64,000 bases of DNA, from the NCBI RefSeq assembly GCF_017348835.2, contig NZ_CP071375.1; one strand, given 5' to 3'. Within the stretch, counting starts at the first letter, position 1; each line of letters opens with the position of its first letter. The notes beneath the pieces were generated by a model that did not search any database, had not been told where the DNA came from, and worked only from the letters and a program-made list of their open reading frames with translations. Below, one piece after another: positions 1,115-64,000 of this stretch. The DNA is from Escherichia coli (GTDB lineage Bacteria; Pseudomonadota; Gammaproteobacteria; Enterobacterales; Enterobacteriaceae). The position numbers and the translations under genes were made by a program.

Positions 1115-2539
<1,425 letters not shown>

Positions 2540-13087: not shown

Positions 13088-13127
13088 TGAGCGGGGTTAT
13101 CGAGTCGTTAGATCGAGGTATCCGGTT

Positions 13128-14333
13128 TTGAGCAAGACACCACTGACAGCAAAGGCCATAGAGGCCGCACAACCGCAGGACAAGCCCTATAAACTCACCG
13201 ATTCACAGACACCTGGCCTGTTTTTGCTGGTCCATCCCAACGGCAGCAAATACTGGCGATTCCGGTATTGGATAGACAAGAAGGAGCGGTTACAGGCTAT
13301 TGGGGTGTATCCGCTGATTAGCCTCAAGGAAGCCCGCAAACGCGCCACAGAGAGCCGTTTACTGATAGCCCAGGGAATTGACCCAATGGATTTGGCACGC
13401 AAGGAGAAAGCCATTGATGCTCTTAATGCTATCGCCAGTTTTAAAGCTGTAGCAGAAGACTGGATGGCTACCAAGGTGAGCGGATGGAGTGAGAGCTATA
13501 CAAAGCAGGTCAGATCGGCACTAGAGAAAGATGTTTACCCCGTGCTAGGTAAGCGGTCGATAGTGGATATAACGGCCCGTGACGTGCTGGCGTTACTACA
13601 GAAAAAGGAGCGCACCGCACCGGAACAAGCCAGGAAATTACGCCAGCGTATCGGGGAGATCTTCAAATTTGCCGTTATCACTGAACTGGTTAACCGGAAT
13701 CCGGTTGCAGATCTGGATACGGCACTGAAAGCCAGACGCCCAGGCCATAACGCGTGGATACCGATTAATGAAATTCCGGCCTTCTACAAAGCCCTTGAGA
13801 GAGCTGGGAGCGTTCAGATTCAGACGGCAATACTTTTGCTCATCCTCACAGCTTTGAGGACGGCAGAATTGCGCCTGATGCGCTGGGAATGGGTAGATCT
13901 GCAATCGGCAACAATCACATTGCCCGCTGAAGTCATGAAGGCCCGCCGACCGCATGTTGTCCCGCTATCCCGGCAGGCGGTCGAGCTATTACAGGACCAG
14001 TTTACCCGCAGCGGATACAGTGCTTTCGTCTTTCCTGGCCGATTCATGGACAAGCCACTTTCAGCCAGTGCCATCCTTAAAGCCCTGGAGCGTATCGGAT
14101 ACAAGTCGATAGCCACAGGCCACGGCTGGCGGACCACCTTTTCAACGGCGCTTAATGAGTCCGGCAGGTACTCACCAGACTGGATCGAAATCCAACTGGC
14201 CCACGTTCCGAAAGGCGTGCGCGGTGTTTATAACCAGGCGGCCTACCTGAAGCAACGACGGGCCATGATGCAGGATTATAGCGACTGTATTGATTCAATA
14301 CTGGCTGGTGACGGTAATCCACTTGAACCGTGA
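13128..14333 (+). CDS. intZ: P4-family tyrosine site-specific integrase
   Basis: 401-aa ORF; AP2-like N-terminal domain; C-terminal catalytic region with R..HGWR..Y signature (HGWRTTFSTAL, RGVYNQAAY); first island gene beside the left repeat. Confidence 0.88.
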   Translation: MSKTPLTAKAIEAAQPQDKPYKLTDSQTPGLFLLVHPNGSKYWRFRYWIDKKERLQAIGVYPLISLKEARKRATESRLLIAQGIDPMDLARKEKAIDALNAIASFKAVAEDWMATKVSGWSESYTKQVRSALEKDVYPVLGKRSIVDITARDVLALLQKKERTAPEQARKLRQRIGEIFKFAVITELVNRNPVADLDTALKARRPGHNAWIPINEIPAFYKALERAGSVQIQTAILLLILTALRTAELRLMRWEWVDLQSATITLPAEVMKARRPHVVPLSRQAVELLQDQFTRSGYSAFVFPGRFMDKPLSASAILKALERIGYKSIATGHGWRTTFSTALNESGRYSPDWIEIQLAHVPKGVRGVYNQAAYLKQRRAMMQDYSDCIDSILAGDGNPLEP

Positions 14334-14455
14334 ACTATAAGGCCGGGTTTATACTCAATATCGACGGTTGAAGCGCTCAAAAAACAACCGTGACAACCGT
14401 CACAAATATGCAATGTCAATGATCTGAATCAATAAATTGCCAATTCTTCGTTTCC

Positions 14456-14470
14456 ACTTTCGAATGAAAG
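14456..14470. repeat. 15-bp motif actttcgaatgaaag, copy 1 (internal inverted repeat ctttc/gaaag)
   Basis: Exact duplicate of 14591-14605. Confidence 0.7.
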
Positions 14471-14590
14471 CAAGATGCAGAAAAATAAATCACCATGAAA
14501 TCATGTACTTATTAATTTTGACCAAATGGTCCAAAATATCCTCGGTGAATCCATGCTTGCCACAGCCAGATGATTAATATTTAACCCATG

Positions 14591-14605
14591 ACTTTCGAAT
14601 GAAAG
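14591..14605. repeat. 15-bp motif actttcgaatgaaag, copy 2
   Basis: Exact duplicate of 14456-14470, 135 bp away, in AT-rich non-coding DNA. Confidence 0.7.
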
Positions 14606-14733
14606 TAAATTGATAAAAAAGTCAGTGTACACTAACTAAATCGAATATTTTTTGCGCTATGTTTGAATGATAATTGAGCAAAACTTTCGCAAGGTGTGAC
14701 GATGTGAGTAATTAATTTTAACTCTACAATAAA

Positions 14734-14791
14734 CCCATCCCGACAGGGATGGTACCTGGAGCGGAGCGAGAGGGACCATCCCCCTGTTTTT
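14734..14791 (+). terminator. Nested hairpins followed by a T-run (terminator-like; may also act on the minus strand)
   Basis: cccatcccgacagggatgg hairpin overlapping ggatggtacc..N16..gggaccatcc stem, then ccctgttttt. Confidence 0.45.
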
Positions 14792-14884
14792 AGTCTTTTG
14801 AAGTTAGTTTTTTAAGGGATTAAATAATTTTGCCTCAAATGAGACCACACCATACAAGGCCAAAAACAATCAGTATTGCGTGGA

Positions 14885-15400
14885 TCAGGCTGGTTTTTTA
14901 ACTATATACCCCGTATGCCAAGGATTCTGATCGCGCGGCATCGGGTCCGCCTTGATAGACTCATAAAACTTATCAGCCATCTCAGCCACAAACTGTACAG
15001 AGGATTCGAACTCAGCGTTTTTGTGTGCGGGAGGAAACCAGAAGTCTAACACGCCAGCATTTCTATTTTTACATACAGCGTATATAAGATAAGCATCAGA
15101 TGTAGGGGTAACTTTTTCGAAACCACCGGGACCATAACGACCAGTAGACCAGTCATCCCAGCATTGTTCTGTCCCGCTATAGCCGTACTGATTGGTATAA
15201 AGACCAATATTTACATGGACTTTACGTAAGTGGATAGGATATACACACGGGGGTTTATGGAAAAGAGTATCCTTTCCAAAATCAGGATGATGTCCATATC
15301 TCCAATGATAAATAAACGAATCCTTAAAGCTCTTTAATTCATCGTTTGTTTTAAACTTATTATCACTGTAGACCTTACCAATAAATTCATTCTGGACCAT
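14885..15400 (-). CDS. Hypothetical protein (171 aa), distal gene of two-gene island cassette
   Basis: ORF 14885-15403; ATG at 15398-15400; overlaps upstream gene by 14 nt; Trp/Tyr/His-rich, no family recognised. Confidence 0.6.
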   Translation of the reverse strand: MVQNEFIGKVYSDNKFKTNDELKSFKDSFIYHWRYGHHPDFGKDTLFHKPPCVYPIHLRKVHVNIGLYTNQYGYSGTEQCWDDWSTGRYGPGGFEKVTPTSDAYLIYAVCKNRNAGVLDFWFPPAHKNAEFESSVQFVAEMADKFYESIKADPMPRDQNPWHTGYIVKKPA

Positions 15401-15734
15401 CAAAGCTTACACTCTTTAAGCGTTCTTCTCGTGAATCGAATAAATCTTTTGATAAATCACACGCTTGTGTGAACGTCATTTTTTTTACTCGTGGTACAGC
15501 CATAGGCGAGGCCGCATTCATCACTTTGTTTTCTTCGTGATCGAGAGTAGCAGTGTAGCGAAACATGACACTTTTACCGCGCACCAACTGGTATCCTAGT
15601 CGATACGCTAACGCGTCAAGATGCGTCAGACGATTTGTTTTACGCAAGCCAGTCATAGCTTTTGGCTTACGAGTGCGCACAGAAAGGGATTTCCCTTCTC
15701 GCTTAGTCGCAAACAAAGTAACTATTTTTGACAT
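15387..15734 (-). CDS. Hypothetical basic protein (115 aa), proximal gene of two-gene island cassette
   Basis: ATG 15732-15734 preceded by GGAGA RBS; Lys/Arg-rich; stop overlaps start of downstream gene. Confidence 0.55.
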   Translation of the reverse strand: MSKIVTLFATKREGKSLSVRTRKPKAMTGLRKTNRLTHLDALAYRLGYQLVRGKSVMFRYTATLDHEENKVMNAASPMAVPRVKKMTFTQACDLSKDLFDSREERLKSVSFDGPE

Positions 15735-16290
15735 GGTATCTCCTGACATCAATCTGCTAAGGCCATTGTGCCTTGTTTGAATAGTAAACTATTCGCCCAA
15801 TCTACACCAGTGATTTTCTTGACGCCAATAGTAAAGGCAGCATTGCCCACCACAGGCAGACAATGAGACTTCAGATAGCGCACCTTCTATCGCGCACGCG
15901 CTCAATAAAACCAACGACACCGCCATCCTGCCTGACCGATGTTTTTAACCAGCGTATACAGAGAAACAGACAACAGCATGAAATCAGCGTATATCCAGGT
16001 GCAGACGGCACTATCACACAACGCACAGCAGGCTGAGGTGAACACTCAAGCAACTTTATCCCCGCCACCGACCACCGCAAACTATCATGACCGTGCCAAA
16101 TTCAAAAGGAATGGCCCATATAACGCGATGAACACACATAAGCGCTACACTTGCTTACCTGAAAACTTCACAGCGTCACAGCGCGTTTTAGACACGTTAA
16201 AATTAATGAGATTTCATTAAATTTTCACCAGACACCGGAACAAGCCTATAAATCAAAAATGAATTACCGACATGCGCCGCTGGCGTTCAC

Positions 16291-16310
16291 AGGAAGAATC
16301 AATAACTTAG
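16291..16310. repeat. Imperfect direct repeat aggaagaatcaataacttag, copy 1
   Basis: 17/20 identical to 16391-16410, exactly 100 bp downstream. Confidence 0.55.
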
Positions 16311-16390
16311 GCCAATGGCGAAAGTTAAACAAAATCAAGAACTTGCAGAAATGCAGGATGAAGCAGCCGATGTGCCCCGTTGGATTTTAC

Positions 16391-16410
16391 CAGAAGAATC
16401 AACAAGTTAG
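16391..16410. repeat. Imperfect direct repeat cagaagaatcaacaagttag, copy 2
   Basis: See 16291-16310. Confidence 0.55.
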
Positions 16411-16662
16411 ACTCGGTGATTTCACCGACTCCTGCCGGACTACTGACCAGATCGAACCATTCCCCAAATTTGGGGAGAGCAAACCACACGCAGATCCTGC
16501 CAGGCTATTTCATCCCACCGCATCACGTATTTGCACACTTCCCCGCTGACGTGCTCATTTTGATAACGAGTTACCCGCTAGCCCTTGCCACATCACCATT
16601 TGTCGCGCTTTGACTAAATTAGCGACGTGCCTGTTATAGCGATACGCTAGTTATGCAGAAAG

Positions 16663-16682
16663 CGCGACATATCCAGCAACCA
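16663..16682. repeat. Exact 20-bp direct repeat cgcgacatatccagcaacca, copy 1
   Basis: Identical to 16790-16809; lies just upstream of the 16707 ORF start. Confidence 0.7.
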
Positions 16683-16706
16683 TGCACCCTACAGAGGAAT
16701 TGAATC

Positions 16707-17159
16707 ATGCGAGACATAGACTGGTCAGCTATCCCTTTCGATGATTTACCGCCCTGGCATCTGGACTGGGACGTAGACCAACGCGAAAACGCGACATATC
16801 CAGCAACCACCAGCATTACAGCGATGCGCCCCGTAAAGCCTAAGAAATACCAGGCAACCGACCTGATAGCTCACCTCAAAGCTATTGGCGGCGTATTTAC
16901 CGGAAGCAAAGACACGCTTGCACATGAAGTATGGCCCCGGAAGACGCCAGCGGGTCGAACCGTTTTACGCTTACTGACCGAACTGTCAGACAACGGCGAC
17001 GCTGTAGTGATTAACCGTGGTCGTTGTGGCGTGGAAGTTATTCTGACGCCGAAGAACAGGGCACAGACGCCTGAATTAAGCGCACCCAAGCAAATGCATA
17101 GCCAAAAATTAAGTCCAGCAGAACGCGTTATATCGCTTTTAAATGGCATCGGATTTTAA
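16707..17159 (+). CDS. Hypothetical protein (150 aa)
   Basis: ORF with GAGG RBS about 10 nt upstream of the ATG; non-repetitive composition; no family recognised. Confidence 0.5.
   Translation: MRDIDWSAIPFDDLPPWHLDWDVDQRENATYPATTSITAMRPVKPKKYQATDLIAHLKAIGGVFTGSKDTLAHEVWPRKTPAGRTVLRLLTELSDNGDAVVINRGRCGVEVILTPKNRAQTPELSAPKQMHSQKLSPAERVISLLNGIGF
16790..16809. repeat. Exact 20-bp direct repeat cgcgacatatccagcaacca, copy 2
   Basis: Inside the 5' end of the 16707 ORF; 127 bp from copy 1. Confidence 0.7.
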
Positions 17160-17185
17160 TTAATTTTGATGTGGTAATTGCAGGC

Positions 17186-17213
17186 AAAAAAATCCCGCCG
17201 GAGAAAGCGGGGA
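17186..17213 (-). terminator. Intrinsic terminator-like hairpin oriented for the minus strand
   Basis: Minus-strand reading ccccgctttctccggcggg followed by U7 (plus strand aaaaaaa-tcccgccggagaaagcgggga). Confidence 0.5.
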
Positions 17214-17446
17214 AGTGAAATCAATCGTTGTAGTTATAGATCACATTTTGGAGTTGAGGATGGCTAATCCTCGCTAATATTATCGCGCCGTTATGTGATG
17301 GGCGCAATTATTTCTTACTAATTAAAAGTTTTGTAAATATTACAGAATATCCCTTTTCACTATATGGTAAAAGATGTGAAACAGGGACATGAGGAATATA
17401 ATATTAAGTATCAACAGTAATGTTGGTCTTTAATTTCATTCAGGGC

Positions 17447-17490
17447 GCGGTGAGGGTTTTCTCCATATTTTTCCTCACCGCTACTTTTTC
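17447..17490 (+). terminator. Terminator/attenuator-like hairpin immediately upstream of the AlpA-like gene
   Basis: gcggtgagg..N17..cctcaccgc stem then tactttttc; a third complementary segment gaggtgag overlaps the RBS of the next gene. Confidence 0.45.
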
Positions 17491-17501
17491 GAGGTGAGAA
17501 C

Positions 17502-17693
17502 ATGAATGATAGCGAATTAATGACGGTGAACGAGGTAGCCGCTTTATTCGGCGTTACCCGTCGGACAATATTCCGGTGGATGAACAAGATTAAAGGCTGG
17601 CCCGTCCCGGTCAGTCCGATTGGCTCAAGAATTAAGTTTATCCGATCTGAGATTTTGGAATTCTATAAAAACAAAGGCGCTCGCCACCAATGA
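17502..17693 (+). CDS. AlpA/Xis-like small DNA-binding regulator (phage transcriptional regulator family)
   Basis: 63-aa ORF with HTH-like segment VNEVAALFGVTRRTIFRWM; GAGGTGA RBS. Confidence 0.65.
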   Translation: MNDSELMTVNEVAALFGVTRRTIFRWMNKIKGWPVPVSPIGSRIKFIRSEILEFYKNKGARHQ

Positions 17694-17769
17694 AAACAGC
17701 TACTGAGATTATCAAATAACCTATTGATTTAAAAAGCTAGCTACCGCAATTTCTGAAGGAATAGGCAGC

Positions 17770-18096
17770 ATGAAAATCAAAGCAAACACAATTAAAGAAA
17801 TAACATCAATCAAAGTAAAAGGAGCAGATGCCATGCATTCATTAGATAGTTATTTTCAGCGCACGACAGCCCCTAAATCAGCCGCCCAGGAACGCCGTGA
17901 GGAATTCCAGGAAAAAGTGATGCGTTCTGCTGATTATATTGCGGACAAGTTCGCGGAAACGGTTCGGCCACTTGTTGATGAAGTAGCTGATAAACTTCAG
18001 TCTGAAATGCCGGAAGACATGGAAGGCACTGCAAAGGCGCGACTCCTTTTTGAATTAAGTCGTCGTTTCGGCGTGTCAATAAGCACTTTTAAATAA
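17770..18096 (+). CDS. Hypothetical phage protein (108 aa)
   Basis: ORF in co-directional island gene string; no family recognised. Confidence 0.5.
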   Translation: MKIKANTIKEITSIKVKGADAMHSLDSYFQRTTAPKSAAQERREEFQEKVMRSADYIADKFAETVRPLVDEVADKLQSEMPEDMEGTAKARLLFELSRRFGVSISTFK

Positions 18097-18113
18097 TCGG
18101 AGGAGGAAAGACA

Positions 18114-18656
18114 ATGGACGCATTTGATGTACTGACAAACAAAGGCGATGAACTGGTAGCACAGCGTGATAAAACCGCCAACGAAGGGGAACGCGCACTG
18201 TTAAATAAGCAGATTAAAGCGATCCGTATGGCCCAGTTTAAATTAATCAGCAATGAAGTTATCGAAAAAATTAAACCGCAGATCCCACAAATCGTTGCTG
18301 ACGCTATTAAAGCCGCCGGACTGGAGAAACGCATTGCCGGGCTGAAAACGAACGCAGAGAAAATGGAGATGCACAAACAGAGCGGTGCTCCGACTCCGGA
18401 TGAGTACTTCTCACCGGATGCTGAGTTTATGGCGCAGGTTGAGGAACGTCTGGGTAGCTGTCTCACCGAGGAACAGTGTCGCTATTTTGATGGAGTGGAT
18501 AGTTCGGCAGGTATTGACCTGAACTCGTATTTCGGTCGTGAAATTGAGCATTTTGATGCCGCCCCGTCTATGCCGGAGCCAGAACCAGAAATGGCCGCCG
18601 ATCCTGAAGCTGAGCAACGGAAACGCGTATTCAATGCGATAGGGATTCGGTACTGA
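18114..18656 (+). CDS. Hypothetical phage protein (180 aa), acidic C-terminus
   Basis: ORF preceded by GGAGGAAAG RBS (18092-18108); no family recognised. Confidence 0.55.
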   Translation: MDAFDVLTNKGDELVAQRDKTANEGERALLNKQIKAIRMAQFKLISNEVIEKIKPQIPQIVADAIKAAGLEKRIAGLKTNAEKMEMHKQSGAPTPDEYFSPDAEFMAQVEERLGSCLTEEQCRYFDGVDSSAGIDLNSYFGREIEHFDAAPSMPEPEPEMAADPEAEQRKRVFNAIGIRY

Positions 18657-18707
18657 TCGGATAAAAGAAAGCCGGGAATTACCCCGGCTGACTTAACAAT
18701 GTGACCA

Positions 18708-19082
18708 ATGAACAAATCGGACAAGACAAACAGGATAAGCAGTCTCGAAACAATGTTCGGGAACTATATTAGCACAAGTCCGGAGAAAATCATCATGTTG
18801 GCACTACGCATCATGCAGGGCATCGCTAAGACCCTCGCAGAACATGTCTTAGACCTGAAACATTCGCCACTGAGCAAACAGGCCATGAAGCGCCAAACGC
18901 TTCGTCTGTGGGCTGAATATTCGCTTGGAACTATCAATAAAATCATCGACATGAAATCGGGGCCGAGCAACCAGAGCGCGGAGGAAATGGAGTTCATCAG
19001 GCGTTTAATTCTCATTCGCAGAGACATTCATAGCCAGTTACACAGCGTGGGAATCGATATTAATGATGGGACGGGCGATTAA
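18708..19082 (+). CDS. Hypothetical phage protein (124 aa)
   Basis: ORF in co-directional gene string. Confidence 0.45.
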   Translation: MNKSDKTNRISSLETMFGNYISTSPEKIIMLALRIMQGIAKTLAEHVLDLKHSPLSKQAMKRQTLRLWAEYSLGTINKIIDMKSGPSNQSAEEMEFIRRLILIRRDIHSQLHSVGIDINDGTGD

Positions 19083-19120
19083 TTTTCGGACAAGTACTAT
19101 GCGCGCGCGAGGAGCTGAAC

Positions 19121-19351
19121 ATGAAGCAAGATATTGCAGACAGGCTGGAGATACTCGAAGGCCAGCGGGCAGAAGCGAAACAACTACGTAAGCAGGCCAG
19201 AAGAGCGCACAGGAACTACGAAGCAGAATCACTGACCGCTTTCATCAACTTCACAAACCGTTGCATCCTGGAGTGTTACAGGGAGGATGCAGAAAACTGG
19301 CTGGATTCATTGCCAGAACAGACTCTGCATGAACTGAACGGCGACCAGTAA
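19121..19351 (+). CDS. Hypothetical phage protein (76 aa)
   Basis: ORF with GAGGAG RBS upstream. Confidence 0.45.
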   Translation: MKQDIADRLEILEGQRAEAKQLRKQARRAHRNYEAESLTAFINFTNRCILECYREDAENWLDSLPEQTLHELNGDQ

Positions 19352-19638
19352 ATAAATCCAGTACGTTTCCCGCAGTGCGCATAACGTACATTATGTGAAA
19401 AACGATATGGATATATATCAGTCTGACTTCAATGAAGAAAACGGACTTCCAGCATCAACCACAAAGAAGTATGGCTAATGCAGCTTTATAAGCCATTGAT
19501 TCTATTAAACGATATTTTTTGTGATTGGTTGAAGCAAACCAAAACACGATGCCACTGAAGCGTTAATAAACTGTTTCAATGTGAAATTATCAGAGTAAAG
19601 AACAATTTGGAGGGTCCGCAAACGCGGATAACAATATC

Positions 19639-21819
19639 ATGAGTGGAAATCTCGGGACCATATACTACGAGGTCGATGCCCGCACTGGGAAACTTCTTAT
19701 CGCGCAACAGCAGGCGGAAGAGGCGTTCGATCGCATTGAACGAGGAGCGCGGAAGGCTGATAGCGGCGTCAAAAAGTTAAATACGCAGATGACTAAAACA
19801 TCAGCCGCAGTCAAAACCAACCTTTCCCCGGCAATCCGTAACGCATCATACCAGATCGCAGACCTTGCCACTCAATTGCAGATGGGCGGTAATGCGCTTC
19901 AGGCGTTCGCTGTGCAGGGTGCGCAGTTATTAGCTGGCTTTGGCACGATGGGCGCGGTAGCTGGCGCGGTGCTGGCTATCGCTGGCGCTATGGGTGGAAG
20001 CCTGGCACAAGGCGCTGATAGTGCAGCCGGATCGGTTGAGTATCTGGACAAGGCGATCACCAAACTGAACGAGGTCATAGCTGTAAATGAACAGGGCGTG
20101 ACGGTGATGAGTGATAGTTACGCCAGACTTTCTAAGGTTAACGCTGAAGTAGCGAAACAGATGCGGAACATGGCTGAAATTCAGGCAATTGCAGCACTGC
20201 GTGACCTGAAAGAACAGGCAAGCCAGGCACAGGGGGAAATGTCGTCATTCTGGCGCAGCTTGCAGGGTGGTAAAGCTGACGCAGCAGCAGCAGCACAGGC
20301 ACTTGATGATCTTGGAATCACAACCAACGACTACAAAGAGGCGATAGCCATACTGAACGCCAATCAGCCGGATACACAGGCGCAAATGGCAACGCTAGCT
20401 AAGTCCGTGATGTACATAGGCGAGGAATACAACCTGACAAACCAGCAAGCCTACGAGTTCATCCGAGCACTAAATAGGGCCGCGACAACGAGAACGCCGG
20501 AAGCCATGCAGGAACTATCGGGCTTCATGCAGGTATTGCTACAGGACACCGAAAACGGTAACGAGGCATTCCGTGAACTGGCTATCAAATTCGTTGATGC
20601 ACAAACCAAAGGCGCAATGCTGGAAGACCAACTAAACCGACTGAAAGGCGCTATCAGTGACGCAGCCACAGAAGCCAGAAACGCCAATTTTACCACTATG
20701 CTCAACACCGTCGCCGCACGCCTGGCAGCCATTGAGCAAGGTTGGGAGGCAGGCGTTAGGATGCAGATGAAAGCCCAGGGCTACACTGAAGAGCAGATCG
20801 ATGAATATGTGAACATGGAAACGGCGTACCGTGATGCAAAAGCCGCTTTGGACGAGAAGAATAAGGCCGACCGTGAAGCTATTGCGCTATCCAAACGCCA
20901 GGCCGCAGAAGCAGCCCGCAAGGCAAAACAGGAAGAAGCTGAAGCACAACGCAAGGCCAAACAGTTAGCCGCGCAGAAGGAGCAGGCAGGACGCTTTACG
21001 CAGCAAGTAATGACGGAATACCTGACGACCGTAGATCCGGCAACAGGCAAGGCGTTTAACCCTGCCGCACAAGTAGAAATGCAGGAGCAGCAGAAGAAAG
21101 CGGCGCTGGATAAATACAGACAGTTGGGCGTCCTGGATGAACAGCAGTACCAGAACACGCTAACCGCCATCCAGAAAACCGCGTCAATGCGCCGCCAGCA
21201 AATCATCAAAGACGAGGCCGACACGTTATTCAACAATCAGCAACAGTTGATCGGCACATTTGGCGATTTCTTCGGTGAACTGTCTGGAGTCATAGCAGAC
21301 GGTGCAGGTGAGCAAAACGCGGCATATCAAGCGCTATTTGCTGTGCAGAAGGGTTTTGTATTGGCATCAGCAGCTTTAAGCCTTCAGAAAGCGCTTGCTG
21401 AGGCAAACGCCTTGCCTTTCCCGGCTAATCTTCCGGCCTATGCGCAAGCTATGTCAGCAGGCACGCAGATCATTTCAGCTATTCGTGGAATAGCTTTCGG
21501 TGGCGGACGCTACAACGGCGGCGCGGTTGGTGCTGGCAACCTGTACCGCGTGGGTGAACACGGTAAGCCTGAGATATTCAAGGCGAACAATGGCAGCCAG
21601 TACATGATCCCAGGTGATAACGGTCGCGTGATAAGTAATCGTGACATTGGCGGCGGTGGCGGCGTAACAATCAACAGCCCGATCACCATTAACACTACGA
21701 ATGGCTTCAGTGATGAAGACTCAAGGCGTCTTGAGGAAGCGATGAAGCGCGTAGCTATGGGCGTTTGCAGGCAGGAGTCAACCAGACCGGGAGGAATGTT
21801 AGCCCCGCGCCGTCGTTAA
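19639..21819 (+). CDS. Phage tail tape-measure-like protein (lambdoid H-like), orphan
   Basis: 726-aa Ala/Gln-rich coiled-coil ORF; C-terminal GNLYR motif and Gly-rich tail as in lambda H; no neighbouring tail genes. Confidence 0.6.
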   Translation: MSGNLGTIYYEVDARTGKLLIAQQQAEEAFDRIERGARKADSGVKKLNTQMTKTSAAVKTNLSPAIRNASYQIADLATQLQMGGNALQAFAVQGAQLLAGFGTMGAVAGAVLAIAGAMGGSLAQGADSAAGSVEYLDKAITKLNEVIAVNEQGVTVMSDSYARLSKVNAEVAKQMRNMAEIQAIAALRDLKEQASQAQGEMSSFWRSLQGGKADAAAAAQALDDLGITTNDYKEAIAILNANQPDTQAQMATLAKSVMYIGEEYNLTNQQAYEFIRALNRAATTRTPEAMQELSGFMQVLLQDTENGNEAFRELAIKFVDAQTKGAMLEDQLNRLKGAISDAATEARNANFTTMLNTVAARLAAIEQGWEAGVRMQMKAQGYTEEQIDEYVNMETAYRDAKAALDEKNKADREAIALSKRQAAEAARKAKQEEAEAQRKAKQLAAQKEQAGRFTQQVMTEYLTTVDPATGKAFNPAAQVEMQEQQKKAALDKYRQLGVLDEQQYQNTLTAIQKTASMRRQQIIKDEADTLFNNQQQLIGTFGDFFGELSGVIADGAGEQNAAYQALFAVQKGFVLASAALSLQKALAEANALPFPANLPAYAQAMSAGTQIISAIRGIAFGGGRYNGGAVGAGNLYRVGEHGKPEIFKANNGSQYMIPGDNGRVISNRDIGGGGGVTINSPITINTTNGFSDEDSRRLEEAMKRVAMGVCRQESTRPGGMLAPRRR

Positions 21820-22315
21820 CCAAATCCCACGCCAGGGGGATAGACTGGCGGCCTTTCAATTCCGTTGAAACGACGGAATCAAACACCCCGATTCAGGGTA
21901 TTTAAACGTCGCGTTTCACGACATTTATCTAAGTCATTGATTTATATTGTAACTCATAATTGAGTTGCGCCGACCATCCCGCCACAAACGCTCCTACGCA
22001 AAAATTCCCTCACAATTACCCTGCCAATTTTCCAGATTTCACGTATACGCGCCTATATCCCCGCCACCGGATACACGCCCGCTTATACCGGATACTTTTA
22101 TGCCATCATTATTAAATCCATTAATAATCATCAAACCATAATTAGCACAACTTATAATCGAACAAAAAACACACAACATTGATAATGATTTTTTCTGGTT
22201 ATACTTATCTAAAAAAGTGGTATGGGAAGTAACTTATTGTTTTGTAATTACAAATTTATTGCGTGGTCAGATGAACAGACTTGCGCACCTCCCGAAAAAC
22301 ACGCGAAAATCGAAG

Positions 22316-22426
22316 TGTTCTTTCTTTTTTTGTTTTTTATTTTTTTATTTTCTCTTTTTCTTCTCTTTCCGGTTCTCTTCTTTTTCTGGTTTTGGTTTTT
22401 TCCTTTTTTATTTTTATTCTTTCTTC
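22316..22426. repeat. ~110-nt homopyrimidine (T/C-rich) low-complexity tract
   Basis: About 90% pyrimidine on the top strand by eye; no plausible coding frame. Confidence 0.7.
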
Positions 22427-22475
22427 AGGGTTGTGATCAAACACACCAAAACATTTTCGCCACAAAAGCGTTAAT

Positions 22476-22511
22476 TTCATCCTGCCAGACCATTCACTTT
22501 CACCGGATACA
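22476..22511. repeat. Right att-like imperfect direct repeat (ttcatcctgcc..N16..ccggataca)
   Basis: Partner of 13051-13087; a further partial copy (caccggatacac) at 22065-22076. Confidence 0.5.
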
Positions 22512-25298: not shown

Positions 25299-26486
25299 TT
25301 ATTGCGCCGCCGCGTACAGGCCGACAATCTGTTCCAGGCTGGCGGTACGCGGGTTGCTGCGCAGACAAATATCTTCCTGCGCGGCCTGCGCCCATGCACC
25401 GTAATGCGCAGATGTCGCGCCAACATCGCCCAGTCGTTTACCAATCCCAACTTCCGCAATCAGCTCACTTACCGCGTTAATAGCGTCACGATCGTCGGAT
25501 TTTTTAGTTCGCAGTGCCCGACCAATCTGACTAAAGCGTTCGCGACATACCATCCGGTTAAACTCCATCACCGTTGGCAGCAACATAGCGTTCGCCAGAC
25601 CGTGCGGAATATGCAGCGCCGCGCCCGGCTGATGCGCCATCGCGTGGCACAACCCAAGACCCGCACTGGAAAACGCCATTCCCGCCATACATGAAGCCAG
25701 CAACATGCTCTCGCGCGCGGCAAGGTCGTGACCGTAGCCCACCGCTTTCGGCAGCGATTTGCCAATCATCGCAATGGCACCAATCGCCAGACTGTCGGTA
25801 AACGGTGTAGCGTTCAGGGCGCTGTATGCTTCAATGGCATGGGTTAACGCATCAATGCCGGTCATCGCCGTGACATGCGACGGCACACCTTCGGTCAATG
25901 CGGCGTCGAGGATCGCCACATCCGGCATCAGCGAGGCATGGGCTAACACCTGCTTGCGCCCGCTCACCGCGTCGATAATCACCGTTACATTGGTGGTTTC
26001 AGAGCCGGTTCCGGCGGTAGTTGGAATGGCAATCAGCGGCAAGCGCGGTTGCAGAACGCTGGTTTCTGACATCTCTGCCAGCGTGCTATCCGGGTTCGTC
26101 ACCAGCAACGCCACGGCTTTCGCCGCATCCAGCACCGAGCCGCCGCCAAATGCGATCACCCCGTCACAACCTGACTCACGCAACTGCGCCACGGCTGCAC
26201 ACACGTCGGTAATGCACGGTTCGCCCACCGGACATGGCCAGAGCGTCATGGCGATACCTTTAACGGCCAGGCTACGCGTCAGCCCGGCGGTCATCCCTGC
26301 CTGATGCAAAAAGCTGTCTGCCATCACGAACAGATGTTTCAGCCCACGCGTTTGCGCTTGCTGTCCGCAACTGCTCACCGAGCCCGGACCGCAAAGCGTC
26401 ACCGGTGGAACGCTAAATGTTTTTACCCGTTGCAGATTCAGGGTATCGAACGCCTGAAAGAGCGCGGTCTGCAATTCATTTTGCAT
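25299..26486 (-). CDS. eutG: Iron-containing alcohol dehydrogenase
   Basis: ORF trimmed to ATG 26484-26486 (MQNELQTALF...); 395 aa. Confidence 0.9.
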   Translation of the reverse strand: MQNELQTALFQAFDTLNLQRVKTFSVPPVTLCGPGSVSSCGQQAQTRGLKHLFVMADSFLHQAGMTAGLTRSLAVKGIAMTLWPCPVGEPCITDVCAAVAQLRESGCDGVIAFGGGSVLDAAKAVALLVTNPDSTLAEMSETSVLQPRLPLIAIPTTAGTGSETTNVTVIIDAVSGRKQVLAHASLMPDVAILDAALTEGVPSHVTAMTGIDALTHAIEAYSALNATPFTDSLAIGAIAMIGKSLPKAVGYGHDLAARESMLLASCMAGMAFSSAGLGLCHAMAHQPGAALHIPHGLANAMLLPTVMEFNRMVCRERFSQIGRALRTKKSDDRDAINAVSELIAEVGIGKRLGDVGATSAHYGAWAQAAQEDICLRSNPRTASLEQIVGLYAAAQ

Positions 26487-40535: not shown

Positions 40536-42515
40536 TCAGTGAGATTTGACTGATTTTACCCCCAGCCAGTCAATAATCCCCTGTGCCGCATGACGTCCTT
40601 CTGCCATTGCGGTAACCACCAGATCCGCACCACGCACGGCGTCACCACCAGCGAAGATTTTCGGATTGGTGGTCTGGTAACGGTACTGGCTTTCCACATC
40701 CGCGATGATGCGGCCCCATTTGTCTACCGTTACACCGTGCGACTCCAGCCACGGCATCCCATGCGGATTGAAGCCAAACGCCATAATCACCGCGTCGGCT
40801 GGCATGACAAATTCACTGCCTTCCACCGGTACTGGACGCCGACGCCCCTGGGCATCCGGCTCGCCAAGACGCGTGCGCAGGAAACGAATCCCGCAGACGT
40901 GACCTTGTTCATTCAGCTCAAGCGCCACCGGCTGGACGTTAAATTCGAAGTTGGCCCCCTCTTCGCGGGCGTTCTTCACCTCTTTCTTCGAGCCTGGCAT
41001 GTTAGCTTCATCACGACGATAAGCGCAGGTGACGTTACTCGCGCCGTGGCGCAGCGCAGTACGCACACAGTCCATCGCGGTGTCGCCGCCGCCCAGTACC
41101 ACGACGTTGAGTCCGGCGGTATTGATAAACGGCTCTTCCGGTAGCTCTTCGAGCCCCATCACCTGTTTAGTGTTGGCGATGAGGAACGGCAGCGCGTCAT
41201 AAACGCCCGGCGCATCTTCATTGGGTAAACCCGCTTTCATGGAACGGTAAGTGCCTACGCCAACGAAGACCGCGTCGTATTGTTCCAAAAGCGAATCCAA
41301 AGAGACATCTTTACCCACTTCACAATTGAGTTCGAAGTGAATCCCCATCGCGCTGAAGATTTCCCGACGACGTGCCAGCAGGGATTTATCCAGTTTGAAA
41401 GAAGGAATGCCGAAAGTGAGCAAGCCACCGATTTCTGGATGGCGATCGTACACCGTCACCGCCACGCCATTGCGGGTCAGAACATCCGCACAGGCCAGCC
41501 CTGCCGGACCTGCACCGATAATCGCCACCCGCTTGTCCACTTTGGTGACATGGCTTAAGTCAGGACGCCAACCTTTCGCCAACGCCTGATCTGAAATGTA
41601 GCGTTCAATGTTGCCGATAGTTACCGCACCGTGCTCATCGCGAATAGTACAGGCACCTTCACACAAACGGTCTTGCGGACAAACGCGTCCGGTAATTTCC
41701 GGCAGGGTGTTGGTCAGGTGAGAAAGCTCGACGGCGGCGTCGATGTTTCCGGCTTTCACCAGTTCAATCCACTGCGGTATATGGTTATGCAGCGGGCAGG
41801 TCCATTCACAAACGCTGTGCTCGCCGCATTTAAGGCAGCGCGAGGCTTCCCGTTGTGCCTGATCGGCACGGAATGGCAGATAAATTTCATCAAAACCGGT
41901 TTTGCGCGCTTCAATCGCCAGTTTATCCGGCTCGCCACGCGCGGGCGTTGCCTGCATTTGCTCGACTTTACTCATTACCGGCATTTCTTGCGCCGCGGTA
42001 CTGGCATGCCACGGTTGATGTTCCTGACGTGCGGTACGCAAGCGACGGGATTTCGCCATGCCTGAGAGTGCGGCGTCAGTGACCAGCTGCAGCGCGTCCG
42101 CCGGGCAATTCTCGACACAGGCAGGACCGTTTTCGCGCCCTGCACAAAGGTCGCATTTATGCGCCGTGGCTTTAACTTTGCCCGCTGCGACGGGTGTCAG
42201 GACGATTTGCATCGTACCAAACGGACAGGCCACCACGCAGGATTTACAGCCAATACACTTTTGCTGATTGACCTGAATGCTGTCATCAACGTGGCTGATT
42301 GCGCCATTAGGGCAGCTACGGGCGCAGGGCGCATCTTCACAATGGTGACAGGTCACTGCACTACGTTGCTGCTGATGTTTGATAACCGTAATTCGGGGAT
42401 GAAAATGATGTTGGCTCAGGACATGTTGCTCATCATTGTGAGCCATGACACAAGCGATTTCACAAGCATGACAACCCAGACATTGCTGACTGTTGGCCAT
42501 AATAAAACGATTCAT
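40536..42515 (-). CDS. aegA: Fe-S cluster oxidoreductase AegA
   Basis: 659-aa ORF with N-terminal ferredoxin Cys clusters and C-terminal FAD/NAD domain. Confidence 0.9.
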   Translation of the reverse strand: MNRFIMANSQQCLGCHACEIACVMAHNDEQHVLSQHHFHPRITVIKHQQQRSAVTCHHCEDAPCARSCPNGAISHVDDSIQVNQQKCIGCKSCVVACPFGTMQIVLTPVAAGKVKATAHKCDLCAGRENGPACVENCPADALQLVTDAALSGMAKSRRLRTARQEHQPWHASTAAQEMPVMSKVEQMQATPARGEPDKLAIEARKTGFDEIYLPFRADQAQREASRCLKCGEHSVCEWTCPLHNHIPQWIELVKAGNIDAAVELSHLTNTLPEITGRVCPQDRLCEGACTIRDEHGAVTIGNIERYISDQALAKGWRPDLSHVTKVDKRVAIIGAGPAGLACADVLTRNGVAVTVYDRHPEIGGLLTFGIPSFKLDKSLLARRREIFSAMGIHFELNCEVGKDVSLDSLLEQYDAVFVGVGTYRSMKAGLPNEDAPGVYDALPFLIANTKQVMGLEELPEEPFINTAGLNVVVLGGGDTAMDCVRTALRHGASNVTCAYRRDEANMPGSKKEVKNAREEGANFEFNVQPVALELNEQGHVCGIRFLRTRLGEPDAQGRRRPVPVEGSEFVMPADAVIMAFGFNPHGMPWLESHGVTVDKWGRIIADVESQYRYQTTNPKIFAGGDAVRGADLVVTAMAEGRHAAQGIIDWLGVKSVKSH

Positions 42516-42720: not shown

Positions 42721-44421
42721 GTGATTGTTAAACGACCCGTCTCGGCCAGTCTGGCCCGGGCCTTTTTTTACATTGTGCTGCTGTCGATTCTTTCCACGGG
42801 TATCGCTCTGCTAACTCTGGCGAGCAGTTTGCGCGACGCTGAGGCTATCAATATTGCCGGATCGCTGCGTATGCAGAGTTACCGCCTGGGCTACGACTTG
42901 CAAAGTGGCAGTCCACAACTCAATGCACATCGCCAGTTATTTCAGCAGGCACTGCATTCACCGGTATTAACCAACCTCAACGTCTGGTATGTGCCAGAAG
43001 CAGTAAAAACTCGCTATGCGCATCTGAATGCAAACTGGCTGGAGATGAATAATCGGCTCAGCAAGGGCGATTTGCCGTGGTATCAGGCCAATATTAATAA
43101 TTATGTTAATCAGATAGACCTGTTCGTGCTGGCTTTACAGCACTACGCTGAACGCAAAATGCTGCTGGTGGTGGCGATTTCCCTGGCTGGCGGTATCGGT
43201 ATTTTCACGCTGGTCTTTTTTACTTTGCGCCGCATACGCCATCAGGTGGTTGCCCCGCTGAATCAGCTGGTTACCGCCAGTCAGCGTATTGAACACGGAC
43301 AGTTCGACTCGCCGCCGCTGGATACCAGTCTGCCGAATGAGCTTGGTCTGCTTGCAAAAACCTTTAACCAGATGTCGAGCGAGCTGCATAAATTGTACCT
43401 TTCGCTGGAGGCGTCAGTAGAAGAAAAGACCCGCGATCTCCACGAGGCCAAGCGTCGTCTGGAGGTGTTGTATCAGTGTTCGCAGGCGCTGAACACCAGC
43501 CAGATTGATGTGCATTGTTTCCGCCATATTTTGCAGATTGTTCGCGACAATGAAGCGGCTGAATATCTGGAGCTGAACGTTGGGGATAACTGGCGGATTA
43601 GCGAAGGGCAACCAAACCCGGAATTGCCGATGCAGATTTTACCGGTGACAATGCAAGAGACGGTTTACGGCGAACTGCACTGGCAAAATAGTCACGTTTC
43701 ATCATCAGAACCGCTGCTTAACAGCGTTTCGTCGATGCTGGGACGCGGTTTGTACTTTAATCAGGCGCAGAAGCATTTTCAGCAGTTATTGTTGATGGAA
43801 GAACGTGCGACCATCGCCCGCGAATTGCACGACTCGCTGGCTCAGGTGCTTTCTTACTTACGTATCCAGTTGACGTTACTTAAGCGTTCGATACCGGAAG
43901 ATAACGCCACCGCACAAAGTATCATGGCCGATTTTTCCCAGGCGTTGAATGATGCTTATCGGCAGTTACGCGAGCTGTTGACTACTTTCCGCCTGACGCT
44001 GCAGCAGGCGGATCTCCCCTCCGCGTTGAGGGAAATGCTGGATACGTTACAAAATCAAACCAGCGCCAAACTGACCCTCGACTGCCGTCTGCCAACCCTG
44101 GCACTGGATGCGCAAATGCAGGTGCATTTGTTGCAAATTATTCGCGAAGCGGTGCTGAATGCGATGAAGCACGCCAACGCCAGCGAAATCGCCGTCAGTT
44201 GCGTCACCGCGCCGGACGGCAATCACACGGTTTATATCCGTGATAACGGGATTGGTATCGGTGAACCGAAAGAGCCCGAAGGTCATTATGGACTGAATAT
44301 CATGCGCGAACGCGCGGAACGGCTGGGCGGGACGCTGACTTTTTCACAACCTTCCGGCGGCGGCACGTTAGTGAGTATTAGCTTTCGCTCCGCGGAGGGT
44401 GAGGAAAGTCAGCTGATGTAA
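42721..44421 (+). CDS. narQ: Nitrate/nitrite sensor histidine kinase
   Basis: ORF trimmed to GTG 42721 (MIVKRPVSASL...); HAMP and HisKA_3/HATPase domains. Confidence 0.9.
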   Translation: MIVKRPVSASLARAFFYIVLLSILSTGIALLTLASSLRDAEAINIAGSLRMQSYRLGYDLQSGSPQLNAHRQLFQQALHSPVLTNLNVWYVPEAVKTRYAHLNANWLEMNNRLSKGDLPWYQANINNYVNQIDLFVLALQHYAERKMLLVVAISLAGGIGIFTLVFFTLRRIRHQVVAPLNQLVTASQRIEHGQFDSPPLDTSLPNELGLLAKTFNQMSSELHKLYLSLEASVEEKTRDLHEAKRRLEVLYQCSQALNTSQIDVHCFRHILQIVRDNEAAEYLELNVGDNWRISEGQPNPELPMQILPVTMQETVYGELHWQNSHVSSSEPLLNSVSSMLGRGLYFNQAQKHFQQLLLMEERATIARELHDSLAQVLSYLRIQLTLLKRSIPEDNATAQSIMADFSQALNDAYRQLRELLTTFRLTLQQADLPSALREMLDTLQNQTSAKLTLDCRLPTLALDAQMQVHLLQIIREAVLNAMKHANASEIAVSCVTAPDGNHTVYIRDNGIGIGEPKEPEGHYGLNIMRERAERLGGTLTFSQPSGGGTLVSISFRSAEGEESQLM

Positions 44422-49952: not shown

Positions 49953-49960
49953 GCTAAGTG

Positions 49961-50040
49961 GCCGGATAAGGCGTTAACGCCGCATCCGGCAATGGTGAAC
50001 GATGCCTGATACGACGCATCACGCGTCTTATCAGGCCTGG
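49961..50040. repeat. REP element
   Basis: gccggataaggcgttaacgccgcatccggca and partner. Confidence 0.5.
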
Positions 50041-57458: not shown

Positions 57459-57928
57459 TGAATCCACTGAAAGCCGGTGATATCGCACCGAAATTTAGCT
57501 TGCCGGATCAAGACGGAGAACAAGTTAATTTGACCGACTTCCAGGGACAGCGTGTTCTGGTTTATTTCTACCCGAAAGCCATGACCCCCGGCTGTACCGT
57601 ACAGGCCTGCGGCTTACGCGATAACATGGATGAGTTGAAAAAAGCGGGCGTTGATGTGCTGGGTATCAGCACCGATAAACCCGAAAAACTCTCCCGTTTT
57701 GCGGAAAAAGAGCTGCTTAACTTCACGCTCCTGTCTGATGAGGACCACCAGGTGTGCGAGCAATTCGGCGTCTGGGGGGAAAAGTCCTTCATGGGCAAAA
57801 CCTACGATGGTATTCATCGCATCAGCTTCCTGATTGACGCTGATGGCAAAATCGAACATGTCTTTGACGATTTCAAAACCAGCAATCACCACGACGTTGT
57901 GCTGAACTGGCTGAAAGAACACGCCTGA
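57458..57928 (+). CDS. bcp: Thiol peroxidase / peroxiredoxin Bcp
   Basis: 156-aa ORF; ATG overlaps the gcvR stop by 1 nt. Confidence 0.93.
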   Translation: MNPLKAGDIAPKFSLPDQDGEQVNLTDFQGQRVLVYFYPKAMTPGCTVQACGLRDNMDELKKAGVDVLGISTDKPEKLSRFAEKELLNFTLLSDEDHQVCEQFGVWGEKSFMGKTYDGIHRISFLIDADGKIEHVFDDFKTSNHHDVVLNWLKEHA

Positions 57929-58122
57929 TTACTTTGCTCCATTCCGTGCTGGCTGCGCTTGTGGTCAGCACACCTCACTTCTCGTGACCAAGATCACATT
58001 CTCACTTTCCCCTGCGACACGGGTGTCGAATCCATTTTTTGCTGAACGTTAATGACCATCATTTTTGTACCGTTCAGAATCCAGTTAATTCATAACTTAT
58101 TGAATATATTAAATTAATAAGA

Positions 58123-58140
58123 CTGGCATCCTTTATGCAA
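58123..58140 (+). promoter_or_regulatory. Sigma-54 (-24/-12) promoter of the hyf operon
   Basis: TGGCAT-N5-ATGCA with canonical GG..N10..GC spacing, about 40 bp upstream of hyfA. Confidence 0.5.
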
Positions 58141-58180
58141 TATGAAATGTAATGTTTCATATCATTTTCAAGGAGCCGAC

Positions 58181-58798
58181 ATGAACCGCTTTGTGGTGGC
58201 CGAACCAATGTGGTGTACAGGATGTAATACCTGTCTCGCTGCCTGTTCGGACGTGCATAAAACGCAAGGTTTACAGCAACACCCGCGCCTGGCCCTGGCG
58301 AAGACGTCAACACTCACTGCCCCTGTCGTGTGTCATCACTGTGAGGAAGCCCCTTGCCTGCAGGTCTGCCCGGTCAATGCCATCTCCCAGAGGGATGATG
58401 CGATCCAACTCAACGAAAGCCTCTGTATTGGCTGCAAGCTTTGCGCCGTGGTCTGCCCATTTGGCGCAATCAGCGCTTCAGGAAGCCGTCCGGTGAATGC
58501 CCCTGCGCAATATGTTTTTCAGGCTGAAGGCTCACTCAAAGACGGCGAAGAAAACGCGCCAACACAACATGCTTTGCTGCGCTGGGAACCGGGTGTCCAG
58601 ACCGTCGCGGTGAAATGCGACCTGTGTGATTTCTTGCCAGAAGGTCCGGCCTGCGTTCGCGCTTGCCCGAATCAGGCGTTACGGCTGATCACCGACGATA
58701 GCCTGCAACGTCAGATGAAAGAAAAACAGCGCCTTGCCGCAAGCTGGTTTGCCAATGGCGGGGAGGATCCCCTTTCCCTCACTCAGGAGCAACGCTAA
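58181..58798 (+). CDS. hyfA: Hydrogenase-4 component A (4Fe-4S ferredoxin-type)
   Basis: ORF trimmed to ATG 58181 (MNRFVVAEPMWCTGCNTC...); 205 aa. Confidence 0.9.
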   Translation: MNRFVVAEPMWCTGCNTCLAACSDVHKTQGLQQHPRLALAKTSTLTAPVVCHHCEEAPCLQVCPVNAISQRDDAIQLNESLCIGCKLCAVVCPFGAISASGSRPVNAPAQYVFQAEGSLKDGEENAPTQHALLRWEPGVQTVAVKCDLCDFLPEGPACVRACPNQALRLITDDSLQRQMKEKQRLAASWFANGGEDPLSLTQEQR

Positions 58799-63896: not shown

Positions 63897-64000
63897 ATGA
63901 GTTATTCTGTGATGTTCGCTTTACTCCTGCTCACGCCGCTGCTTTTTTCGCTGCTCTGTTTTGCCTGCCGGAAACGGGGGCACTCTGCGACTCGCGCGGT
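63897..64000 (+). CDS. hyfF: Hydrogenase-4 component F, N-terminal fragment running off the window edge
   Basis: ATG at 63897 opens a hydrophobic ORF ([17 protein letters not shown]...) continuing past the window. Confidence 0.6.

Follow-up and report, generated by a model that had tools for sequence, protein, structure and literature searches.

Gene context of the bcp-hyfA spacer

The window, by which we mean the whole 64,000-nt stretch of E. coli DNA analyzed here, matches the genome of E. coli strain PE164 at 100% identity over its full 64 kb (NZ_CP114128.1, positions 1302522-1366521, reverse complement). In its last part, the genes occur in the order bamC(-), dapA(-), gcvR, bcp, hyfA, hyfB, hyfC, hyfD, and hyfE, with hyfB to hyfE running on to the window end, and the structural genes hyfA-J are all annotated as intact in PE164. 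A spacer of 252 nt separates the end of bcp (position 57928) from hyfA, and this spacer hosts the elements described below (Table 1). An additional in-frame ATG at position 58142 lies upstream of the predicted transcription start, and it would therefore be unusable from the sigma-54 promoter that we discuss here.

Table 1. Coordinates of the features found in and around the bcp-hyfA spacer, as positions in the window
Feature	Position	Strand	Remarks
Stable hairpin	57946-57971	+	18 nt past the bcp stop codon; -17.6 kcal/mol, z = -2.84; no T-run
CRP site CGTGACCAAGATCACA	57983-57998	.	Centre at about -159.5; ChIP-seq-supported allele in ETEC
Block B, CGACAC-N3-TGYCGA	58015-58030	.	Perfect palindrome CGACACGGGTGTCG in E. 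coli; centre at about -128
Sigma-70-like candidate ATGACC-17-CAGAAT	58052-58080	+	8/12 consensus positions
Block C TGACCATCAYTTTTGT	58053-58068	.	-97 to -82; 15/16 positions invariant across three genera
IHF-like element ATTCAATAAGTTA	58093-58105	-	Candidate; centre at about -51
Sigma-54 (-24/-12) element CTGGCATCCTTTATGCA	58123-58139	+	Top matrix match in the window; K-12 allele bound in ChIP-seq and SELEX
Palindrome ATATGAAA-N7-TTTCATAT	58140-58162	.	Around the transcription start, spanning -10 to +13
Predicted transcription start	58150-58151	+	19 nt past the centre of the motif; 31 nt before the hyfA ATG
Shine-Dalgarno sequence AAGGAG of hyfA	58170-58175	+	
hyfA	58181-58798	+	First gene of the operon; ATG at 58181 annotated by PGAP in the identical PE164 genome

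The hairpin that follows bcp is likely the 3' end structure of that gene. At the same place in Citrobacter and Kosakonia, the alignment, read as unfolded sequence, shows other inverted repeats that are rich in GC and have T-rich tails after them. A scan against Rfam returned no RNA family within the bcp-hyfA spacer.

The -24/-12 element and the predicted transcription start

Positions 58123-58140 read CTGGCATCCTTTATGCAA. In the earlier note, these letters were described as TGGCAT-N5-ATGCA with GG-N10-GC spacing, about 40 bp upstream of hyfA, and the sequence bears out each part of that description. TGGCAT occupies 58124-58129, the spacer CCTTT 58130-58134, and ATGCA 58135-58139; exactly 10 nt separate the GG at 58125-58126 (-25/-24) from the GC at 58137-58138 (-13/-12); and the motif is followed, after 41 nt, by the ATG at 58181. 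The two doublets thus sit in an element that resembles YTGGCACGR-N3-TTGCW. Strand and position are also those of a sigma-54 promoter, in that the element is on the plus strand, is intergenic (bcp-hyfA), and is predicted to start transcription a few tens of nucleotides before hyfA.

Primer extension by Skibinski and colleagues in 2002 reportedly put the start of transcription 30 bp upstream of hyfA, and the same work is said to have found expression of a hyfA-lacZ fusion to be sigma-54 dependent. The reported start agrees with the one predicted here (58150/58151), for which we used the 19-nt rule together with the 31-bp distance given in Table 1 of PMC4591121 (Bonocora et al. 2015). The base at 58150 is T in the window and C in K-12 and five other sampled strains. 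This T also disrupts a direct repeat that is present in K-12, ATGCAAT...ATGCAAT (58135-58141 and 58148-58154). The palindrome around the start could be the operator of a regulator; its conservation between genera is limited to AA-GTTT around +2 to +8.

Motif scores and chance expectation

The motif by itself is not significant in 64 kb of sequence. The degenerate form TGGCAY-N5-WTGCW matches once in the window vs. 0.58 expected matches, and at least one match was obtained in 41 of 100 shuffles. We then scored the window with an E. coli matrix derived from the 41 intergenic sigma-54 ChIP-seq sites of PMC4591121, with hyfA left out. The hyf site reached 15.1 bits, the best of ~128,000 window positions, which falls inside the range of the training sites themselves (9.0-21.8 bits) and close to their median (16.0). 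The same score was attained in 116 of 200 dinucleotide-shuffled windows, with a mean of 0.95 matches per shuffle. According to the multi-species matrix of Barrios et al. (taken as reproduced in PMC7658346), the hyf site ranks only 8th in the window, with 11.9 of 21.2 possible bits; it departs from the multi-species consensus in having T for C at -21, C for G at -20, and A for T at -15. It was likewise absent from the matches of a search for TGGCACG-N4-TTGCW at up to 2 mismatches.

Since the motif is insignificant by itself, the case for its identity must rest on position, experiments, and conservation. With regard to position, the shuffle rate of 0.95 matches per ~128,000 positions predicts only ~0.001 matches this good on the coding strand in the 150 nt that precede hyfA. 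The combination of motif and position is thus beyond chance, and the combination is also conserved in orthologous loci (see below).

The next-best matches to the E. coli matrix in the window were found at 1686-1702 (+), 25407-25423 (-), and 40799-40815 (+), scoring 14.1, 13.6, and 13.4 bits, respectively. These three have no counterpart among the published ChIP-seq sites for the region and are therefore probably chance matches. Separately, the sequence AAGGTACAATTTATGCA within narQ (43385-43401, minus strand) is one base off a K-12 intragenic antisense sigma-54 ChIP-seq site, IA19 (ACGGTACAATTTATGCA).

Sigma-54 binding and expression of hyf in K-12 and Proteus mirabilis

The K-12 allele, ATGGCATCCTTTATGCA, is identical to the window element at 16 of 17 bases, the sole difference being the first base. 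In K-12, the hyfA site is sigma-54 ChIP-seq peak OS23, with a fold above threshold of 16 and a predicted start 31 bp from hyfA, and it carries the flag "C", which denotes experimental confirmation in EcoCyc (PMC4591121 and its Table 1). In addition, genomic SELEX with reconstituted RpoN holoenzyme recovered the bcp-hyfA spacer as a 92% peak when the holoenzyme was used alone and as the highest peak of the genome (100%) when NtrC was added (PMC8743547). These binding data concern the K-12 allele; the window allele has C at -27 and T at +1.

The earlier note had also stated that the hyf operon depends on sigma-54 and an activator, a statement that finds support in the published K-12 binding, in the regulation cited in the literature, and in our comparative data. 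Skibinski et al. 2002 (J Bacteriol 184:6642) is the source that later papers cite for regulation of hyf by FhlA/HyfR and sigma-54, and in Proteus mirabilis the activity of the hyf promoter is reduced in both rpoN and fhlA mutants (PMC7658346).

A contrary reading is that the motif is a chance occurrence without a role and that hyf is transcribed by read-through from gcvR-bcp. About one match this good is indeed expected per 64 kb, and the hairpin after bcp has no T-run, both of which this reading would accommodate. Published sigma-54 occupancy in vivo and in vitro contradicts it, however, as do the strand-specific conservation across species described below and the stability of the hairpin that follows bcp, and we regard it as extremely improbable. 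We are instead nearly certain that positions 58123-58139 are the sigma-54 (RpoN) promoter of the hyfABCDEFGHIJ(R-focB) hydrogenase-4 operon. It is an already characterized element, namely the hyfA promoter of K-12 as it occurs in another E. coli strain.

Conservation within E. coli and across genera

Within the species, 4297 of 5426 complete E. coli genomes contain at least 80% of the length of the bcp-hyfA spacer, and hyfR is found in an equal number of genomes (4297). The 16-mer TGGCATCCTTTATGCA is unchanged in all 7 of the diverse E. coli strains that we compared. Position -27 varies among these 7 strains, with A in K-12 and three others and C in the window, O157:H7, and E57; the C brings the element nearer to the consensus YTGGCAC and raises its score with the E. 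coli matrix by 1.5 bits. Most of the other genomes, ~21% of the complete E. coli set (~1,127 of 5,426), have only the first 49 nt after bcp (57929-57977) in common with the window spacer. One ST131 genome has yfgO directly after bcp, and the whole hyfA-focB locus is absent from it.

Across species, a scan for HyfA with one genome per species yielded 45 loci, 43 of them usable and none from Escherichia or Shigella, which is why the within-species variation above was drawn from the E. coli genome collection. In the 150 nt before the start codon, 29 of the 43 hyfA-like loci of other species have a sigma-54 match of at least 11 bits on the coding strand, and none of the 43 has one on the other strand; the background expectation, obtained from other upstream DNA, is ~0.04 per locus. 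The gcvR-bcp-hyfA order is retained in Citrobacter and Kosakonia. Their elements read ATGGCATCCTTTGTGCA or TTGGCACAKCTTATGCT and are predicted to start transcription 28-32 nt upstream of the ATG; at the aligned position, the TGGCA and TGC cores are invariant.

The upstream control region

The upstream blocks were defined from an alignment of 8 sequences from E. coli, Citrobacter, and Kosakonia. Across genera, the promoter and these blocks show clear purifying selection.

The most distal of the regulatory elements is the CRP site. Its CGTGATCAAGATCACA allele is among the high-confidence CRP sites obtained by ChIP-seq in ETEC H10407, where it was assigned to hyfA (PMC4287617), and hyfA is a known CRP target that has also been found by genomic SELEX (PMC3105977). 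The half-sites GTGA and ATCACA are invariant in Citrobacter and Kosakonia. The best match of the FhlA matrix in the spacer (57985-57998, 12.4 bits) coincides with this site, and we rejected it as an FhlA site given that ChIP-seq favours CRP.

The core of block B is invariant across E. coli, Citrobacter, and Kosakonia. Measured between centres, block B lies 30 bp from the CRP site in Kosakonia and in Citrobacter sp. NCU1; in E. coli, this distance comes to 30-31 bp according to which frame is chosen. The sequence GTGTCGA occurs both in block B and in the hycA-hypA FhlA enhancer, which lies between these two genes; the published FhlA matrix gives block B only 5.6 bits. On sequence grounds, block B is most likely a candidate enhancer site for FhlA/HyfR. 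A consensus scan had flagged it as an intrinsic terminator of bcp, a reading that we rejected: it does not form a stable RNA hairpin (z = +0.58), and in Citrobacter and Kosakonia the stem is broken (TGCCG) with no compensating change while the sequence is otherwise kept.

Block C gave no good match to the FhlA matrix and fits none of the FhlA, CRP, or IHF consensus sequences. It overlaps the -35 hexamer of a proposed sigma-70 promoter, which is considered in the next section.

The consensus sequence bound by IHF is WATCAANNNNTTR, and the putative IHF element between block C and the promoter matches it at 12 of 13 positions. In this element, the positions of the consensus core, which read TCA and TT on the minus strand, do not vary among the 8 aligned sequences.

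A proposed sigma-70 promoter in the spacer

The proposed sigma-70 promoter would start transcription near 58087 and would either drive hyf or contribute to its expression, leaving the sigma-54 site within its 5' leader. It originates from a genomic SELEX study in which RpoD holoenzyme gave a peak in the bcp-hyfA spacer in vitro, to which the hexamers ATGACC-17-CAGAAT were assigned (PMC3946193), and the ATGACC indeed lies within the strongly conserved block C. The hexamers were, however, assigned in silico after low-resolution binding in vitro, and the -10 sequence CAGAAT is not conserved in Citrobacter and Kosakonia, whereas the sigma-54 element is. Moreover, the promoter marked as confirmed in EcoCyc is the sigma-54 one (PMC4591121), and our own scan of positions 57850-58260 for sigma-70 sites with at least 9/12 consensus positions and 16-18 nt spacing found none, which also counts against this proposal. 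We thus find it improbable that the sigma-70 candidate accounts for hyf transcription in either of these ways, and a role as a minor extra promoter beside the sigma-54 promoter is possible.

Activator genes in this lineage

The gene hyfR is located ~5 kb past window position 64000 (L056 2584-4595, minus strand; NZ_CP114128.1 1295583-1297594). PGAP annotates it as frameshifted in PE164, where deletion of a single C turns GTTGCCGGG into GTTGCGGG. As a result of the frameshift, the last 30 residues (PRGAATRLGMKRTTLLSRMQRLGISVREVL) are replaced by VARRHD followed by a stop codon, and the C-terminal DNA-binding helix-turn-helix is lost. A second pig isolate, F2_81, has an identical 2012-nt hyfR sequence. 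This match argues for a real hyfR mutation in the lineage, although a shared assembly error is also possible. The gene for the activator of the FhlA regulon, fhlA, is intact in PE164 (2079 nt, under the annotated symbol "flhA"), as are the hyc and hyp operons. Given a HyfR without its DNA-binding motif and an intact fhlA, FhlA is likely the sole activator in this genome.

The loss of the HyfR helix-turn-helix through a 1-nt deletion also bears on how often the promoter is used. It could be that the sigma-54 site is genuine and is occupied by a poised closed complex that rarely fires, such that the operon is effectively cryptic in this strain. In wild-type K-12, hyf has been called "silent" or poorly expressed (in the title of Self et al. 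2004 and in a remark in PMC7384014), and sigma-54 occupies many sites without known transcription (PMC4591121). Weighing against this are the intact fhlA, together with the report that FhlA regulates hyf (PMC7658346, citing Skibinski 2002), the purifying selection on the promoter and upstream blocks across genera, and the intact annotation of hyfA-J in PE164. On balance, we take effective silence of the operon to be the less likely case, and yet one that deserves to be kept in mind; rare firing is plausible and is compatible with the identification of the element as the hyf sigma-54 promoter.

We also considered the possibility that block C is an enhancer specific to HyfR that separates HyfR from FhlA control, in which case PE164 and F2_81 would represent a natural FhlA-only variant. 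This assignment is speculative, and we consider it rather unlikely. The lineage keeps block C and carries a slightly stronger base at -27; were the assignment true, it would be useful for dissecting the logic of control by two activators.

Proposed mechanism of hyf promoter control

In the proposed scheme, RNA polymerase with sigma-54 would sit on the -24 GG and -12 GC as a stable closed complex (occupancy of this kind has been shown for the K-12 allele), and this complex would be unable to open the DNA unaided. An AAA+ enhancer-binding protein bound upstream would contact the complex by DNA looping, and ATP hydrolysis would open the promoter. The enhancer-binding protein in question would be the formate-responsive FhlA and/or, where it is intact, HyfR. 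The activator sites are probably the conserved blocks at about -128 and/or about -90, and looping is probably helped by a bend at the IHF-like site at about -51. Transcription would then proceed from about 58150/58151, i.e., 30-31 nt before hyfA. The CRP site at -159.5 may add catabolite control, with binding known from the ETEC ChIP-seq data and the effect taken from the literature.

Comparison with known sigma-54 promoters

The promoter in the window and K-12 hyfAp have in common the locus, the gcvR-bcp-hyfA order, the 16-mer TGGCATCCTTTATGCA, and the distance to the ATG, as well as the upstream CRP site and the conserved blocks, and the spacers are ~96% identical. The window differs from K-12 in having C rather than A at -27, T rather than C at 58150, and C rather than T in the left half of the CRP site; in addition, hyfR is frameshifted in PE164.

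Among the FhlA-activated promoters, those of hycA, hypA, fdhF, and hydN are of the same -24/-12 TGGCAY-N5-WTGCW type as hyf. In this formate regulon, 20-41 nt separate the predicted transcription start from the gene start, and an FhlA enhancer lies upstream; the fdhF motif GTGGCATAAAAGATGCA shares both the TGGCAT and the ATGCA variants with hyf. In contrast, the hyc-hyp and fdhF enhancers display clear repeats of TGTCG/CGACA or CGTCA/TGACG, whereas the hyf spacer has one such palindrome (block B), the unrelated block C, and the CRP site. The ChIP-seq signal in K-12 is also lower, with a fold above threshold of 16 for hyf vs. 91 for hycA and 201 for hypA.

The hyf loci of Proteus mirabilis, Citrobacter, Kosakonia, Morganella, Providencia, and Dickeya have a coding-strand sigma-54 element shortly upstream of hyfA. 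Among these other Enterobacterales loci, the element differs in sequence and in how far it lies from the ATG (28-73 nt), and Citrobacter and Kosakonia are the only ones with the bcp-hyfA synteny and the upstream blocks.

As a discovery, the element carries little weight, given that the promoter was mapped in 2002 and has since been re-confirmed by genome-wide ChIP-seq and SELEX. It serves instead as a positive control, i.e., a real sigma-54 promoter that was correctly recognized from raw sequence. The analysis also provides a compact map of the hyf control region, comprising the CRP site, the two conserved blocks, the IHF-like site, and the -24/-12 element, and this map together with the hyfR frameshift could guide work on the poor expression of hydrogenase-4 in E. 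coli.

Other features of the window

The sole Rfam match in the window at the gathering threshold is naRNA4, a REP-derived nucleoid-associated RNA, at 49960-50037 (+) with 85.7 bits. The window further contains an island of hypothetical genes at ~13100-22500, between eutA and eutB, that breaks up the eut operon. Its contents include a YafO-family toxin, a helix-turn-helix regulator, and the integrase intZ, and its placement resembles that of the CPZ-55 prophage in K-12.
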